A DNA stretch of 64,000 nucleotides, taken from a virus. Lineage: Duplodnaviria > Caudoviricetes. Positions 6,868 to 31,792 of the stretch are shown piece after piece. A program made the position numbers and the translations under genes. Location of the stretch: IMG/VR virus record IMGVR_UViG_3300037067_021960, positions 7,061-71,060 of that record; one strand, given 5' to 3'. The notes under the pieces are model-generated. The model was not told where the DNA came from and ran no database searches. It saw nothing but the letters and a program-made list of their open reading frames with translations. Positions within the stretch are counted from its first letter, which is position 1. Every line of letters starts with the position of its first letter.

Positions 6868-8064
6868 TCATCCCTTCACTACGCCAAGCGGTGTGAGTTT
6901 GACGATCGCCTCAACAAGATCTGCCTGGTCAGCCATGACTCGCTCGATTGGCTTGTAAGCAGCGGGTGCCTCGCTCAGGTCGACGGGCCTACCGTAGCGG
7001 TCCTTTCCATCAGTGATGTCGTCCCAGCCTGAGAAGACGACACCTTTCATTGACTCCCGGCACTCCTCGACGGTGTGTGTGCGGTTGAACTCAGCCCGGC
7101 CAGATGCCCGCCCGGCACCGTGGCTGCAACTCTCGAACGAGTTCTTGTTCCCGAGGCCGCGGACGATGTAGCTCGTCGTTCCCATGCTGCCGGGGATGAT
7201 GCCGATCTCGCCAAGCTTGGCAGATGTCGCTCCCTTGCGGTGGACCCACACGTTGCGACCGAAGTGGTTCTCGATCTGCGCGTAGTTGTGGTGGACGTCG
7301 TAGGAATTTGCATGGCCGCAGAATCCGAGGACGTCGATGAACTCGCTGATGACGACATCCATGATCCTGGCGCGGTTCTCCCTCGCAAACGCAAGGGCAA
7401 ACTGCATCGCGTCGATGTAGTCTTTCGCCTCCGGCGTCCCGATCGGTAGGAAGGCCAGGCTGTCGTCACCCTTCCCGGGAGGTAGCGAAACATGCCAACG
7501 CTCGCACAGCTTGGATGCCGTCGCGACGTAGTGCTTCGCGATCATTAGCCCGAGGTGGCGGCTCCCACTGTGGACCATCGCCCAGATGTACCCGTCACTT
7601 CCTTGCTGGATCTCGATGAAGTGGTTCCCGCCACCGAGCGTTCCAAGCTGGTAACGAGCCGACTCTGATTCCTCGCGCACTGCCTCGACGTCTGGTGCGT
7701 TGTCGAATCCACCCCACTCTTGCGGGCTCTCGTGGTGATCGAACCCAACAGGGACACGGCGTTTGATTCCTTCCAAAACGGCACGCACATCGTCTGTGTT
7801 CATCGGGCCGGCGTGTAGCCTAGCTGCTCGCATCCCGCACCCAATGTCGACGCCAACCGCGTTTGGGATCACGGCACCTTCGCACGCGACTACCCCGCCG
7901 ATCGGCATCCCGTACCCGCTATGGCAGTCGGGCATCAGCGCGACGTGGTGGACCGTGACAGGATGGTTGGCGAGGTTCATCGCTTGCTCCATCGCCTTCG
8001 GCTCCACGTCGGCGCACCAAGAGAAGATCGGCAGCCTTGTGTTTCCTGACTTCACAAACAGCAT
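6868..8064 (-). CDS. rtcB: RtcB-family RNA ligase
   Basis: MPDCHSGYG.PIGG, VGVDIGCG, GTLGGGNHFIE, HHNY, VHRKGAT, IIPGSMG, SCSHGAGR, EAPAAYK. Confidence 0.95.
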   Translation of the reverse strand: MLFVKSGNTRLPIFSWCADVEPKAMEQAMNLANHPVTVHHVALMPDCHSGYGMPIGGVVACEGAVIPNAVGVDIGCGMRAARLHAGPMNTDDVRAVLEGIKRRVPVGFDHHESPQEWGGFDNAPDVEAVREESESARYQLGTLGGGNHFIEIQQGSDGYIWAMVHSGSRHLGLMIAKHYVATASKLCERWHVSLPPGKGDDSLAFLPIGTPEAKDYIDAMQFALAFARENRARIMDVVISEFIDVLGFCGHANSYDVHHNYAQIENHFGRNVWVHRKGATSAKLGEIGIIPGSMGTTSYIVRGLGNKNSFESCSHGAGRASGRAEFNRTHTVEECRESMKGVVFSGWDDITDGKDRYGRPVDLSEAPAAYKPIERVMADQADLVEAIVKLTPLGVVKG

Positions 8065-8065
8065 C

Positions 8066-9163
8066 TCATGCCACCTCCGGGGACTCGTTCCACTCACGCC
8101 CGTCGAGCAGTCGGCCAGCGGCCTTCTTGCCGACCTTCTCCATGAGCCAGGTCTGCGGATCGCTCGGCTGGCCCTCGCCGTCGCGCCAGATGTGGCCGCT
8201 GGAGTCAACGGCCTCGAGGGCGCCACGCTCGTCCTCAGCGGCCTCGTCGCGCCTTCCGTGGAGAGGCGTTACGGGTTCCCAGTCTCCGTGGCTCTTGAAG
8301 AAGAACCGCACGCCTGCTGCCTTGCACTGATCGCGCAGGCTCCGCGCCCAGTCCGGGTGAAGCGGCCGCGCGCCGGGGCCGGTCTCGCCGCCGCAGATCA
8401 CCCAGTCGAGGCTAGGGAGCGCCTCGAACTCAGCGGGCTTGATCCCCAGGGGCCCGCCAGGCGTTTCCACAGCCAGTGCGCCGTGCCGATTTGACTGCGC
8501 GCGATATACACCGCGGAGAGCCACCGCTTTCGGATTCAACACACCGAAGTCCGCACGGACCATCCCGTGGAGACGGACCCAACGGCTTGAAACCCGCGGG
8601 CAACAGTCACACGTTTCCGAGTTCAGGCCAAGGTCCACGGGCCCCAGTAGTGGCTCGCAACTCACGAACCGCTTCGCCGCGGGCACCTGCAGAAGCACCG
8701 GGATCCGCTCGTCCGCCGCTGCCTGGTTCTCGGCCGTCACGCCCACCCACACGTTTGGCAAGAAGTCCCCGCCGCCGAGGAGTCGCGGGCTCGTCCCGAT
8801 CTGCTCGTAGAGCTTGGCCTGGATGTTCTGCGGCCGCTTCGTGAGAACGAGGAAGCAGTGCTGGCGGCACTGTGACATGACCTCGAACACGTCCTCGACG
8901 AATTCTGCTGGAACGTCGTCGTGGAACAGATCCCCCATGCTCACGACGAACACGCGCTGCGGCTTCTTCCAGTGCAGCGGCTCGTCGAGACGCTCGGGGT
9001 GCAGTGTCACTCGGAACGGCTCGTCTGCCAGGTACCCGTACCTCCCCCGGAGGCGCTTCGCCATCCGCGCTGCGTAGCAGTGGTCGCACGCCGCGCTGAC
9101 TGGCGTGCATCCAGTCACGGGATTCCATGAGGCGGTTGCCCACTCAATCTTCGTCGCGCCCAT
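8066..9163 (-). CDS. DUF5131 (Gp37/Gp68) family protein
   Basis: TKIEW...WNPVTGC...CDHCYA, SMGDLFH, LTKRP, FVSCEPLLGP, WVICGGETG, FFFKSHG. Confidence 0.92.
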   Translation of the reverse strand: MGATKIEWATASWNPVTGCTPVSAACDHCYAARMAKRLRGRYGYLADEPFRVTLHPERLDEPLHWKKPQRVFVVSMGDLFHDDVPAEFVEDVFEVMSQCRQHCFLVLTKRPQNIQAKLYEQIGTSPRLLGGGDFLPNVWVGVTAENQAAADERIPVLLQVPAAKRFVSCEPLLGPVDLGLNSETCDCCPRVSSRWVRLHGMVRADFGVLNPKAVALRGVYRAQSNRHGALAVETPGGPLGIKPAEFEALPSLDWVICGGETGPGARPLHPDWARSLRDQCKAAGVRFFFKSHGDWEPVTPLHGRRDEAAEDERGALEAVDSSGHIWRDGEGQPSDPQTWLMEKVGKKAAGRLLDGREWNESPEVA

Positions 9164-9170
9164 CAGTCCG

Positions 9171-9335
9171 TCACGACCTTCGCAACACAGGCCACGTTAC
9201 AACCTCATCCGAGTAGTCCGGATCCATTCCGTAGATGCGCTTCTTCTCTTGGACTGCGAAGATCGGACACGCCGTGATCCGGTTGTCCTGTGTCTTCAAC
9301 TCGTGCGCAATGACCTCCAGCTCTTGATCAGACAT
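9171..9335 (-). CDS. Short, possibly truncated phage protein
   Basis: TQDNRITACPIFAVQEKKRIYGMDPDY motif followed by an early stop. Confidence 0.5.
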   Translation of the reverse strand: MSDQELEVIAHELKTQDNRITACPIFAVQEKKRIYGMDPDYSDEVVTWPVLRRS

Positions 9336-27175: not shown

Positions 27176-27691
27176 TCACCACCGCTCCGCACGGATGAGG
27201 ATCTGCTTGCCCCAGTTGCCGACGACCTTGACGTACGTGAACCCGGCACGTGAGAAGAGGTCGAGTAGCTGCGGCGTCGTGTAGGCATTCACCCAGTTGT
27301 TCTCCCCCCGGACGGCAGGATTCGCCAGACGCCCCTCAGCCGGCGCGTACGACGCGAGGATCGTCGTCACCGCGTTCGACAGCTTGCCCAATAGCCGCGG
27401 CAAGTCTTCGACGTACTCGAGCACTCCGCCGAACACAGCCACGTCGTGTGGCGGAAAGTCCGGCAGCGTCTTGGCGTTGAGGTCGCAGACGAACGTACCT
27501 GAGCCACGGTCGTACACGTCCGACGGCGTGTACATGCACCCACGCGGCACCCGCTCGCGCAACGCCATCGTCCACGCCCCGAACTCAATTACCGAGCGCG
27601 CGTCGGGTTCGATCAGCGCGGCCAAGAGCTCTGTCCTCGCGTCCCATTCCGGAACAGGCCGCGGCCGCTGCCACCGTTTCGTATCGCTCAA
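27176..27691 (-). CDS. Class I SAM-dependent methyltransferase-like protein
   Basis: SVIEFGA, YTPSD, CDLN, DVAVFGGVLEY. Confidence 0.75.
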   Translation of the reverse strand: MSDTKRWQRPRPVPEWDARTELLAALIEPDARSVIEFGAWTMALRERVPRGCMYTPSDVYDRGSGTFVCDLNAKTLPDFPPHDVAVFGGVLEYVEDLPRLLGKLSNAVTTILASYAPAEGRLANPAVRGENNWVNAYTTPQLLDLFSRAGFTYVKVVGNWGKQILIRAERW

Positions 27692-27906
27692 TGTCTCACA
27701 ACCTTTGCCACCAATTCCTTTCTGCGATTCCTCCGGATCTGAGCTGTCGAACGCTTATTCCTCCGTGCTCGCAGTTCAACAACACCATCGACAACCCGAA
27801 AGTCGATCTCGTGAACAAGGCCGCAGTCGCAGCACATCATTCGATAGCTCGACATCACCGGGCGCACCCACTCGTCATCCACGACCACTGGGTAGAGCCT
27901 GCTCAC
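27688..27906 (-). CDS. Small phage protein
   Basis: CCDCGLVH motif. Confidence 0.7.
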   Translation of the reverse strand: MSRLYPVVVDDEWVRPVMSSYRMMCCDCGLVHEIDFRVVDGVVELRARRNKRSTAQIRRNRRKELVAKVVRH

Positions 27907-28421
27907 CCTTTCACCCCGCTCGTTGGCTCAATGATCAACAGGACGATGGAAAACGGAGGTCGCTCGTTCGGTCCGACTTCGGTACTACCAGGTTTGATGA
28001 AGCGCCACCGACCTCGTTGAAACTCGGTGTGTAGGCGAGATCCGTCCCTGTCCCTGATCGGCTCGACCAGCTCTTGCCACCAGTCCTGTTCCGTGCGGTT
28101 GGCCGGAAGCAGCATGACGATCAAGTCCGCATCCGTCTCTCTCAGGGCCTTCTCGACCCACGGCCGAATACTCGAGTACGGCGGGTTCACGTAGACTCTC
28201 TCACCGCTCCAGCTCTGCGATAGCCCATTGACATCTACTGACCAGTACCGTGGCAGGCGTGCATTCACGGCGGACGCTGCCGCGTCGACCGTAAAGCCGA
28301 ATCTCTGTTGGAGCGTCGCAAACAGGTCGTCTGGTAGCGTCCGATCGTCGGGGTCAACGTAGTTAGAGAACAGCTCTGGATATCCCGGTCGTGTCTGCCT
28401 ACAGTACCGATGAAGCGTCAC
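27903..28421 (-). CDS. Phage Dam-type N6-adenine DNA methyltransferase
   Basis: FTVDAAAS..NA, VYVNPPYS, MLLPANRT. Confidence 0.9.
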   Translation of the reverse strand: MTLHRYCRQTRPGYPELFSNYVDPDDRTLPDDLFATLQQRFGFTVDAAASAVNARLPRYWSVDVNGLSQSWSGERVYVNPPYSSIRPWVEKALRETDADLIVMLLPANRTEQDWWQELVEPIRDRDGSRLHTEFQRGRWRFIKPGSTEVGPNERPPFSIVLLIIEPTSGVKG

Positions 28422-29303
28422 ACCGCCTCCATGTACGCCATCACGAACTCCGCCGCGACTTGCGACACGATTGCATTGCCCGCTCCCCGCAGGAGGCCCA
28501 CTCTGCCGGGTACCCCATGAGCCAAAGGCTGAATCGTGGGTTCAATGCGCCGCGCGACGATCTTCCCGGTACGTGGTTCGCGGCAATAGACAACGCGGTA
28601 CTCTGACCAGGGAGAATGCTCGCCACCTGCTGATGAAGAGGGATCCCCGTGTCCTGCAGACGGAATGTCCCCGTCCCTCTCCGGTGGTCGGATACCGTCG
28701 GAGTGGACCAGCCCACAAGGACCGTGGCTGCTTGGTCCTCGAGACGACTCCCTTTCCCCGTATGTTCCAGGCACGGTATGCCTCCGTTCGTTGTCACTCT
28801 GGGCGTCCCCCCACCCAGAAAAGACGGAGCCTCGGTTGCGGGGCACCGACGGCCGCAGCAGGAAGAGCTGACGTCCCGACGGCATAGCCACATGCTTCCA
28901 GGTCAGTCTGTACTCCATCGAGCCATAGGCGCCCATCCGTGCTCTCAACCTGCTCTCCAAACACGACTGTAGGGCGGCACTCCGCGATGAGGCGTCGGAA
29001 CTCGGGCCACAGGTGGCGCTCGTCTCGCTCTCCGCGTCTTTTCCCAGCGACGGAGAACGGCTGGCAAGGGCAACTCCCAGTCCACACGGCTCTGTCGTCT
29101 GGCCATCCAGCAAGTCGAAGAGCGTAGGACCAGCCTCCGATGCCCGCGAAGAAGTGGCATTGCGTGAACCCATCAAGGTCGCCGGGGCGCACGTCAAGGA
29201 TGCTTCTCTCGTCCACCTCTCCATCAGCGATCAGCCCTGCCTTGATGAGTTCGCGCAGCCACGAACAGGCCTTCGGGTCGTTGTCGTTGTAGTAGGCCGG
29301 CAT
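28418..29303 (-). pseudogene. C5-cytosine methyltransferase, alpha frame, frameshifted at the C6 run 28807-28812
   Basis: FFAGIGG, SCPCQPFS, GEQV and RLRLFWV upstream; LRGAGNAIVSQVA (motif X) downstream in another frame; removing one base gives an 885-nt ORF. Confidence 0.85.
28441..29224 (-). pseudogene. Overlapping beta polypeptide of the C5 methyltransferase (alternative frame), broken at the same base
   Basis: ...SGW|GTPRV...GWSTP...LNPRFSLWLMGYPAEW (motif IX); removing one base gives a 783-nt ORF. Confidence 0.75.
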
Positions 29304-29307
29304 CTAA

Positions 29308-29709
29308 TCAGGACGTCCCCTCCCTCTTCTCAATTACGTACGCCCAGGTGATCCTCTCCAAGCCCCCGCCGTCTGGGTGCGGGTCATGGACCACGTCCGA
29401 GCCGCGCATGACGACCGCGTGCTTCCGTCCGCGCGGTCCGGGGCCCGCTGCGATCCACCACGCCACAGCCGCCTCGCCTGCGACCGTCTCCGCCCAGTCC
29501 TCTACGTCGAACGCCGCCAACTCGTGCGCCGGAACCGCCACAAGGCGGAGGCCGCGCTTTGCCAGCCAGGCTTGCGCCAGGTCGAACCATCGCTCTCCCT
29601 TCTCCGCGAAGTTGGGAACAACGCCGATCGCCAGCTCGAGGATCGACGCCAGACACGCCGAGAAGCAGTTGCCCCCGTCCTTAAACCGCGTCTGCTGCAC
29701 GGGGATCAT
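29308..29709 (-). CDS. Small papain/C39-peptidase-like protein
   Basis: GNCFSACLASIL...HAVV...VHDPHP (Cys-His-Asp). Confidence 0.55.
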   Translation of the reverse strand: MIPVQQTRFKDGGNCFSACLASILELAIGVVPNFAEKGERWFDLAQAWLAKRGLRLVAVPAHELAAFDVEDWAETVAGEAAVAWWIAAGPGPRGRKHAVVMRGSDVVHDPHPDGGGLERITWAYVIEKREGTS

Positions 29710-31436
29710 TCGGAAGCCACCTTCTCGCCGCGACGCGCTAGGTACTCGGCCGCAAGGCGCTTGATTCCGCCGTCCTTCGTCGTCACGGCCTCAACCCGTG
29801 GCGCGTGCGGATCCCGGAGGCCTTCGATCTGCCCCTTCTTGATCCCAAGCACATCGGCCACTACAGGATCCGACCCGGAGTCCGAGAGGAGGTAGTAGAC
29901 CGCGACCGGATCCACCTGACCGTCACGGTGGACACGGCCGATGCACTGCTCGTGCACACCCGGTGACCAGTCAAGCTCACCGAACACAACGGTCCGGCTG
30001 ACCTTCTGCAGGCCATCGATGCCCTGTCCGGCTCGCAGGCTCATCACGAGCACCTTGGCGTGGCCGTCGATGAAACTGTCGCGCGCTGCGTCCTTCTGCG
30101 TAACCGACTCCGAGCCCGTGAACATGACCGGATCGAGGTCTTTGAGGAGGTCCATCCAGATCGAGTACACCTCGCGGTGCCACCCGTAGAGCACGACGCG
30201 CTCGCCCGACTCGACAAGAAGCCGCACGAACGCTGCCACATACGGAGCCTTTGCGATCCCCGTCGCCTGACGTAGCTTCCAGTCCAACTCGCGCGCCGCC
30301 TGCCCGCGCTTGGTGAACTCCGACGCCGGGCCGAGGATCACGCGCGCCAGCTCGGCCACGTCCACGGAGACGCGGTTCAACGCCTCCATGTCCGCGTCGA
30401 CGTGCTGCGGAATGACCATGACCTCTGGCAGCTCGCGGGAGACGTCGGAGCGCGTTCGGCGAATCATGAGCCCCGCCTCGCGCACGTACGACCCGAACGC
30501 GACAGGCTCTCGCACCGACGCCCGCTCCGGCCGGTCGTACCGCTCGTGGCACCACTCACGCAGGAACTCGTCGAGCGAGCCGAGGGCGCCCGGGAGGAGG
30601 GCCTCCATCACGTGAAAAAACTCGCCGCCATAGTTGTAGACAGGCGTCGCCGAGAGCCCGAGACGGTACTGCGCGGCCGCGGCGATCTCCTGGGCCGCCT
30701 CGCCCTTCGCGCTAGCGTCCCCACGGCGAAGCTCCTGCACCTCGTCGAAGATCACGGTTCGGACCGTCCCGGCGAGCGTGTCCGCCCAGCCCGCGAGCTT
30801 GTGGTAGTTGGTGACCAGGACATCGGGGAAGCAACCTTCGCCCGCCTTGCCTCTCTTCTGCCTCCTGCCGGCTACGTCGTACGGTGTGCCCTTCTTGATG
30901 ACATGCACGACGAGGTCCGGAGCGAAGCGGTGCAGCTCACGCTCCCACTGCGTCGTGAGGTGCGTCAACGTCACTACGAGCGCCGGCCGCGTCGACGGCT
31001 CGGTGAGCATGGCGATCGCACAGACGGTCTTGCCAAGGCCAACGTCGTCAGCCACGAGGAGTCCGCGGGTCCGCAGTGCTGCCTCTGCAGCCACTCGTTG
31101 GTAGTCACGCGGCGGAAGCACAAGCTCGAACGCCCGCGGCTCGATCGTCCCCGAGAGAAGACGCTCAACGTCGATGACACGCTGCTCGTACGCCGCCGAA
31201 CGGAACTCGAGCTCGTCGCGATCGCGTTCCTTCATCTGGAGCGGGTAACGCTCGAGAAGCCAGCGGATGTCCAGTGACGTCTCGTCCGTCGCCAGGATCT
31301 CGATGTGTCCCGGTGTCCCGTTCTTCGCCGCACGCCCGAACAGCCGCTTGACGCGAAGAGACACGTGAGGCTCCGTCTGGATCACCCAGCACTCCTTGGC
31401 GCCTCGTTCGAGCGTCAGCGTGCCGTAGGTACGCAT
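29706..31436 (-). CDS. Second SNF2-family helicase
   Basis: ADDVGLGKT, FDEVQ, LSATP, EQCIGRVHRDGQ. Confidence 0.92.
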   Translation of the reverse strand: MRTYGTLTLERGAKECWVIQTEPHVSLRVKRLFGRAAKNGTPGHIEILATDETSLDIRWLLERYPLQMKERDRDELEFRSAAYEQRVIDVERLLSGTIEPRAFELVLPPRDYQRVAAEAALRTRGLLVADDVGLGKTVCAIAMLTEPSTRPALVVTLTHLTTQWERELHRFAPDLVVHVIKKGTPYDVAGRRQKRGKAGEGCFPDVLVTNYHKLAGWADTLAGTVRTVIFDEVQELRRGDASAKGEAAQEIAAAAQYRLGLSATPVYNYGGEFFHVMEALLPGALGSLDEFLREWCHERYDRPERASVREPVAFGSYVREAGLMIRRTRSDVSRELPEVMVIPQHVDADMEALNRVSVDVAELARVILGPASEFTKRGQAARELDWKLRQATGIAKAPYVAAFVRLLVESGERVVLYGWHREVYSIWMDLLKDLDPVMFTGSESVTQKDAARDSFIDGHAKVLVMSLRAGQGIDGLQKVSRTVVFGELDWSPGVHEQCIGRVHRDGQVDPVAVYYLLSDSGSDPVVADVLGIKKGQIEGLRDPHAPRVEAVTTKDGGIKRLAAEYLARRGEKVASE

Positions 31437-31792
31437 CAGAGAGCACGCTCCGAGAGCCATAGGATGACGACCCTCTTCCGCTTCAGCAGGTTCGGGATCC
31501 CGAGGTGACCGCACCGGCTCGTAACGACGAGCAGCTCGTGTATGCACTCGTCAGTGAGGTAGGCATGGATCTGCCGAACGAGCTTCGCCATGCTCCCGTC
31601 AACCTTGACCTCGATCCCAACGCCGTCCTGGCAGAGGAAGTCGATCCGGCCACCATGGACCACCACCTCGCGCTCGAACTGGATGCCGGCCGCCGTGAGC
31701 ACTTGCGCAATACCATCCTGAAGCTCGCGCTCCGATGAGAATCGGAACCGATTCCCGACAAGCGCATCTCGGACGGCCACGGCGTCCGTCAT
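31436..31792 (-). CDS. PD-(D/E)xK nuclease-like protein
   Basis: RIDFL...GIEVK...QIHAY. Confidence 0.75.
   Translation of the reverse strand: MTDAVAVRDALVGNRFRFSSERELQDGIAQVLTAAGIQFEREVVVHGGRIDFLCQDGVGIEVKVDGSMAKLVRQIHAYLTDECIHELLVVTSRCGHLGIPNLLKRKRVVILWLSERAL

Follow-up and report, generated by a model that had tools for sequence, protein, structure and literature searches.

The locus described here is, with good confidence, a phage orphan C5-cytosine DNA methyltransferase gene of a two-frame (alpha/beta) type that carries an unprogrammed homopolymer indel. Its value lies in the family rather than in the broken copy itself: some 300 codons of same-strand dual coding would give rise to the two halves of one enzyme, in a layout conserved in hundreds of phage sequences.

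Methyltransferase motifs in three overlapping frames

The source is a 71-kb linear viral contig from IMG/VR, estimated to be 76% complete. The window, by which we mean the whole 64,000-nucleotide stretch analysed, has a GC content of 64% and carries almost all of its genes on the minus strand. Pieces of a C5-cytosine methyltransferase are spread over three minus-strand frames (A, B and C) at 28418-29303, with the following features.

28797..29303, minus strand: alpha head, frame A, a 169-aa ORF with motifs I, IV, VI and VIII; stop 28794-28796
29133-29150, minus strand: motif I, FAGIGG, frame A
29052-29069, minus strand: motif IV, PCQPFS, frame A
28947-28961, minus strand: motif VI, FGEQV, frame A
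within 28812-28838, minus strand: motif VIII, QPRLRL, frame A
29224 to 28421, minus strand: frame B, open over this span and holding the beta head and the alpha tail
28811..29224, minus strand: beta head, frame B, with its ATG at 29224 and ending ..SGW
28940-28972, minus strand: conserved LQSxLESRL helix of the beta head, frame B
28892-28915, minus strand: conserved EYxLTWK hairpin of the beta head, frame B
28807..28812, minus strand: G6 run of the coding strand (C6 on the plus strand), the frame-break site; in-frame lengths G5 or G8
28418..28810, minus strand: alpha tail, frame B, with a low-complexity linker, PLAHGVPGRVGLLRGAGNAIV (motif X) and a C-terminal helix; stop 28418-28420
28466-28489, minus strand: motif X, RGAGNAIV within PLAHGVPGRVGLLRGAGNAIV, frame B
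28441..28809, minus strand: beta tail, frame C, with TPRVTTNGG.., a GWSTP module and motif IX; stop 28441-28443
28696-28713, minus strand: GWSTP module of the beta tail, frame C
28498-28545, minus strand: motif IX, LNPRFSLWLMGYPAEW, frame C
28466..28545, minus strand: doubly constrained overlap, in which beta motif IX (frame C) and alpha PLAHGVPGRVG..GNAIV (frame B) share the same bases

Frame A matched Pfam PF00145 with 72 bits (cut-off 22, E 7.8e-20) and corresponds to positions 10-214 of 327 in the phrog_363 profile. With the chain split, it reaches only 52.5 bits of the 100.65 required by TIGR00675, a partial match, and the frame-A stop lies four codons past the G6 run. The ATG of the beta head sits within alpha 'DG' codons and is followed by a Ser/Pro-rich N-terminus that is not conserved and then by the conserved helix and hairpin; this head aligned with phrog_1008 positions 10-126 of 329. 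The alpha tail corresponds to phrog_363 positions 231-315, and the beta tail, in a frame that is open from 28902 to 28444, matched phrog_31772 as well as phrog_1008 positions 254-281. As assembled, motifs IX and X are therefore each off the frame of motifs I-VIII and in different frames from one another; the frame translations bear out the statement of the initial annotation that motif IX lies in a frame overlapping alpha.

The second frame is conserved in intact relatives

A scan of IMG/VR yielded at least 599 relatives, and the retained IMG/VR loci with an intact alpha numbered 73. Motifs I-VIII and X of these relatives lie on alpha, and the +1 frame holds motif IX together with GW-x-TP modules. 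In 73 of 73 the +1 frame contained motif IX and was open for 80% or more of the alpha length (median 90%), compared with a median open share of 23% for the +2 frame and 31% for control ORFs. Motif IX was always in +1, starting 56 nt ahead of motif X. The two-frame layout was also present in 59 of 63 parsed metagenome loci and in 65 of 67 further viral loci and, because it recurs across these three sets, the split of motifs between two frames lies far beyond chance. Dual coding by alpha and beta, as proposed in the initial annotation, is thus supported: loss of the beta frame in homologues had been set beforehand as the refuting test, and the frame proved to be kept in every intact homologue examined.

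The arrangement can be seen in two distant homologues from deposited phage records, those of Xanthomonas phage phiXaf18 and Klebsiella phage KPN N137, each annotated in a single frame only. There the gene labelled methylase combines motifs I-VIII with motif X, and the +1 frame harbours a second ORF, absent from the annotation and 267 aa and 312 aa long, respectively, with ..SLTWK.., WPTP modules and LNPxxSRWLMGYP.

Third-codon-position diversity shows selection on both frames. Among relatives, the alpha third position is free in the N-terminus (diversity 0.5-0.7), is reduced to 0.31-0.44 across motifs VI-VIII, which correspond in beta to LQSSLESRL..EYxLTWK..ICALRAS, and falls further to 0.26-0.31 over the overlap of motifs IX and X. 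Within the GW-x-TP modules the most variable position is the third position of beta, which marks beta as the frame under selection there. An ATG within the alpha 'DG' codons occurs at a single alignment column in 39 of 62 sequences, and this internal ATG is the likely start of beta.

We considered a reading without any beta protein, under which the gene would be an ordinary single-chain methyltransferase hit by two frameshifts (A to C, C to B), its open second frame being no more than a consequence of high GC content. The 64% GC of the window would accommodate such an effect, but intact relatives, including a member of 53% GC, keep motifs I-VIII and X together and motif IX in +1; moreover, the beta frame is under purifying selection of its own, and its ATG is shared at one alignment column by 39 of the 62 sequences. 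We regard this reading as extremely improbable. A single-chain gene joined from A to C to B is ruled out by the Xanthomonas and Klebsiella phage genes.

Predicted properties of the two chains

The two chains are held in PHROGs as separate families, phrog_363 (alpha) and phrog_1008 (beta). Public sets contain more than 2,000 beta-like protein clusters; among those listed, 120 of 120 had no Pfam domain and, where a name was given, it was 'hypothetical protein'. AlphaFold predicted a confident Rossmann core (residues 1-170) and a C-terminal helix for alpha of the closest intact relative (L004), with residues 171-268 at pLDDT below 50 and lacking secondary structure. Across relatives, alpha is unalignable between motifs VIII and X. 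The family profile matched M.HhaI residues 76-175 (E 5e-16), and over this stretch alpha is, as judged by the profile match, homologous to the M.HhaI catalytic domain. The beta profile gave no match to PDB sequences even at E 10, and the beta monomer model (mean pLDDT 55) was too poor for a fold search. Such poor folding in isolation may faintly hint at a chain that folds on its partner.

In the intact enzyme, alpha would act as the catalytic chain, comprising motifs I-VIII, a disordered linker and motif X. Beta would be read in +1 over almost the whole alpha gene from the internal ATG, and would comprise the conserved helix-hairpin head and motif IX, with one or more GW-x-TP modules, which probably read the target sequence. 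Since M.EcoHK31I needs both its alpha and its beta, with beta in another frame of the alpha gene, we infer that the beta head and motif IX dock on alpha and that the two chains form one enzyme.

A single base interrupts both subunits

The reading frames of both chains change at the G6 run. Deleting one G in silico gave two uninterrupted chains: alpha with 885 nt (294 aa plus stop, ..FWVG/DAQ.., the slash marking the join) and beta with 783 nt (260 aa plus stop, ..SGW/GTPRV..), with 0 internal stops in each. These are the lengths given in the initial annotation, which had claimed that removing one base from the C6 run mends both frames at once.

We used L004 as the reference for locating the break. 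The window's alpha head is 76% identical to it and, in BLASTP comparisons, L004 alpha 197-324 matched the frame-B tail (49% identity, E 2e-28). L004 beta 5-139 matched the frame-B head and stopped at GW (62%, E 1e-37), and L004 beta 172-290 matched the frame-C tail, beginning at TPRV (55%, E 8e-37). Because homology flanks the G run on both sides, these alignments imply that the shift must be confined to the run itself, between ..TGGGTG and ACGCCC... The window is without one GW-x-TP module that is present in L004 (beta residues 140-171), and the break falls at that module boundary. In the window, phrog_363 and phrog_1008 each divide over two frames, with the division at one shared point; the unsplit L004 chains cover phrog_363 positions 10-315 (alpha) and phrog_1008 positions 11-284 (beta).

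An extra G, making G6 instead of G5 in a lineage-specific run, would move everything downstream by one base. In the assembled sequence, alpha ends after motif VIII and the beta head runs on into the alpha tail, so that the remainder of beta, comprising its module and motif IX, has no start of its own. The assembled gene is accordingly a null allele of both subunits. Past the break, both frames are still open. Read through the break, alpha departs from 2 of 62 highly conserved columns (those at least 95% conserved) and beta from 0 of 16, which is inside the range of intact relatives. Because both downstream frames remain open and conserved, the lesion is recent, reversible or an artefact.

Recent mutation, sequence error or switch

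The initial annotation had offered a choice between a slippage switch and a sequencing error. The double knock-out by a single base on which that choice was built stands; the choice itself was incomplete and leaned the wrong way, since a simple null mutation of recent origin is no less likely than either of the two. We put a genuine, very recent indel in the sampled phage population at close to an even chance, and an error in the consensus sequence is a possible but more doubtful explanation. A further four runs of at least six bases (27304, 30615, 36104 and 59636) occur within long ORFs that are intact. When 20 ORFs from neighbouring overlapping pairs were compared with PHROGs in search of a second split gene, none shared its neighbour's family, with only 7 matching anything. 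Given these four runs and the lack of another split gene among the pairs compared, the contig does not seem generally error-prone, which lowers the odds of an assembly error without removing them. One junction that had looked like a homopolymer break in a 'split sigma factor' was rejected, being an ordinary ATG..TGA overlap. An exact-flank pattern search of viral and metagenome contigs for the same phage with G5 or G6 gave 0 matches, and in a protein-seeded scan of metagenome contigs no relative exceeded about 50% identity over the full match; the identities of 76-85% seen in that scan cover only about 33 residues around motif IX.

A rival view treats the run as a contingency tract, in which replication slippage toggles G5 (ON) and G6 (OFF) for both subunits at once. 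Such a toggle could serve as a bet-hedge, with classical restriction favouring methylated phage DNA and methylation-dependent restriction favouring unmethylated DNA. In favour of this view, both subunits depend on a single indel, the frames past it show no decay, in line with a reversible state, and broken copies elsewhere in the family occur at G6, G7, G8 and G9 runs; in the first viral sample alone, three broken copies had their breaks at or near G6, G8 and G7 runs. In addition, two near-identical loci from different samples (L164 and L200) differ as G8 versus G9, the only indel in 3.2 kb. These broken copies and the G8/G9 pair suggest that tract slippage recurs in the family and could be exploited. 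Against an evolved switch in the window, the tract has 6 bases (5 when ON), below the PhasomeIt cut-off of at least 7 G/C for calling phase variation (PMC6321876). The site is not conserved either: G6 at the homologous position was found only in the window and the run is absent from 70 relatives; of 71 sequences, 68 have a longest G run of 2-3 and two a run of 4. The window contains eight other G/C runs of six or more, several of them inside intact ORFs, and family genes show no clear enrichment of G runs of this length (11 in 74 kb of genes; in the flanks, 31 runs of G or C in 291 kb). An evolved switch is thus unlikely at the window site.

A broader proposal concerns the family, namely that slippage, during replication and possibly transcription, takes place at G runs where two-frame methyltransferase genes are doubly coding, so that one tract would set the state of both subunits; we consider this improbable as well. 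If it were true, the states of a tract would be ON, a fusion of beta head to alpha tail and a fusion of alpha head to beta tail, and the G6 of the window would be one such state, beside the G8/G9 of L164/L200 and the G7 of a further locus, L078.

The G6 state might also be expressed as it stands, through a +1 ribosomal slip, RNA-polymerase stuttering or assembly of a three-piece enzyme. A slip on G-GGG-GGA, with GGG in the P site and the rare GGA in the A site, or polymerase stuttering on the run would restore some alpha and some beta; the three pieces would be the ORFs for motifs I-VIII, for the beta head plus motif X, and for the module plus motif IX. The same +1 slip would mend both frames, no structural element has been lost from the coding sequence, an ATG is available in frame C at 28893, and split C5 methyltransferases tolerate fragmentation (PMC2836561). 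Yet we found no stimulatory element, a run of 6 is short for transcriptional slippage and the frame-C ATG is without a good ribosome-binding site. Nor is the broken layout inherited by diverged relatives, each broken copy being a singleton or one of a near-identical pair. Expression of the G6 state is therefore very unlikely, and a recent indel or a consensus error remains the preferred account of the assembled gene.

Over the whole window, the plus strand carries 60 C5 and 8 C6 homopolymers against 11 G5 and one G7. With plus-strand homopolymers so strongly biased towards C, G runs are concentrated on the coding (minus) strand.

Gene neighbourhood

Three further genes frame the locus.

29709-31547: SNF2-family helicase, upstream of the C5 gene
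27903..28421, minus strand: Dam-like N6-adenine methyltransferase (Pfam PF05869, E 9.2e-22), downstream of the C5 gene
27179-27691: SAM-methyltransferase-like ORF (Methyltransf_23-like, weak match)

The region 27179-31547 thus contains three methyltransferase-like genes in a row, directly downstream of the helicase. The GTG start of the Dam-like gene overlaps the alpha stop (GTGTGA), and the Dam-like gene is probably translationally coupled to the frame of the alpha tail. Since no restriction endonuclease was found among the five neighbouring ORFs scanned against Pfam, the C5 gene looks like an orphan methylase of the anti-restriction type. Elsewhere in the window, 6871-8268 holds a phage-encoded RtcB-like tRNA splicing ligase (phrog_1075, E 6e-117), which is adjoined by a conserved protein of unknown function (phrog_2045) at 8069-9196.

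Comparison with known systems

Two-polypeptide C5 methyltransferases are known in more than one form. M.AquI consists of two polypeptides divided within the variable region; its subunits are encoded in succession and are not known to be overprinted along their full extent. The phage family resembles M.AquI in its predicted two-polypeptide make-up and differs from it in that beta is overprinted on alpha.

The closer counterpart is M.EcoHK31I from E. coli HK31 (recognition sequence YGGCCR; Lee, Kam and Shaw, 1995), described in PMC2836561. This enzyme has two polypeptides, with beta in another frame inside the alpha gene, and both are required for activity (PMC2836561); the initial annotation had cited its beta, read from an alternative frame of alpha, as established, and the paper states it so. 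In the two-frame type that M.EcoHK31I represents, motifs I-VIII and X belong to alpha and motif IX to beta, and the phage family shows this division. They differ in that the phage beta is nearly the size of alpha (260 versus 294 aa), starts about 80 nt after the alpha start, and has a conserved head and repeated GW-x-TP modules, whereas phage alpha is disordered from motif VIII to motif X and shows no alignable sequence there. Because beta carries the modules and this part of alpha is disordered and unalignable, the target-recognition part of the phage family apparently resides in beta; in M.EcoHK31I it is described as part of alpha. Furthermore, the window gene is a frameshifted phage orphan beside a Dam-like gene, in contrast to the restriction-modification pair of M.EcoHK31I.

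In PHROGs, phrog_363 (alpha) and phrog_1008/phrog_31772 (beta) are both annotated as 'DNA methyltransferase' and are both matched by window frames. The alpha and beta families are listed as unrelated, with their common DNA origin not recorded.

Campylobacter, Helicobacter and Neisseria are familiar examples of bacteria whose mod or Type II methylase genes contain homopolymer tracts. Like such bacterial phase-variable methyltransferases (PMC6321876), the window gene has a G homopolymer within the reading frame whose length decides whether the protein is made. Unlike them, its tract is 6 bases long, unconserved, located in a phage and placed over two overlapping genes.

The architecture as such is already known from M.EcoHK31I, and the window copy is a new, broken member. 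M.EcoHK31I was the single enzyme with a two-frame architecture in the literature searched, where we found no published description of a widespread phage two-frame family. Mechanistically, the double knock-out by one base is ordinary. As a natural case in which a single base removes both subunits, it indicates that an indel anywhere in a gene of this kind carries a double cost and makes homopolymer runs in two-frame genes natural switch candidates. For annotation, the locus is best recorded as one frameshifted two-frame gene and not as three unrelated ORFs.

Unusual members of the family

Several other members depart from the intact layout. The contigs L164 and L200 (region 2137-2200 in each), from two IMG/VR metagenomes, are 99.5% identical over 3.2 kb with 15 mismatches and one gap. 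Their G8 and G9 runs fall where the gene is doubly coding, and neither length keeps the frame that a run of G7, as expected from relatives, would give; the tract is a candidate hypervariable tract or, alternatively, reflects a systematic sequencing problem at long G runs. In L078 (2501-3544), L127 and L200, a shift of opposite sign joins alpha motifs I-VIII in frame to the beta modules and motif IX, giving the canonical single-chain order minus motif X, which lies in a different frame. These fusions could be errors, OFF states or hints to the origin of the two-frame layout. Two metagenome contigs (L099 and L100) carry an insertion of about 1 kb after alpha motif V, downstream of which alpha and beta resume with their frames shifted; the insertion looks like a mobile element or intron in a two-frame gene. 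In L018 (2734-3106), an internal deletion takes out the modules together with motifs IX and X and leaves the C-terminal helix in frame.
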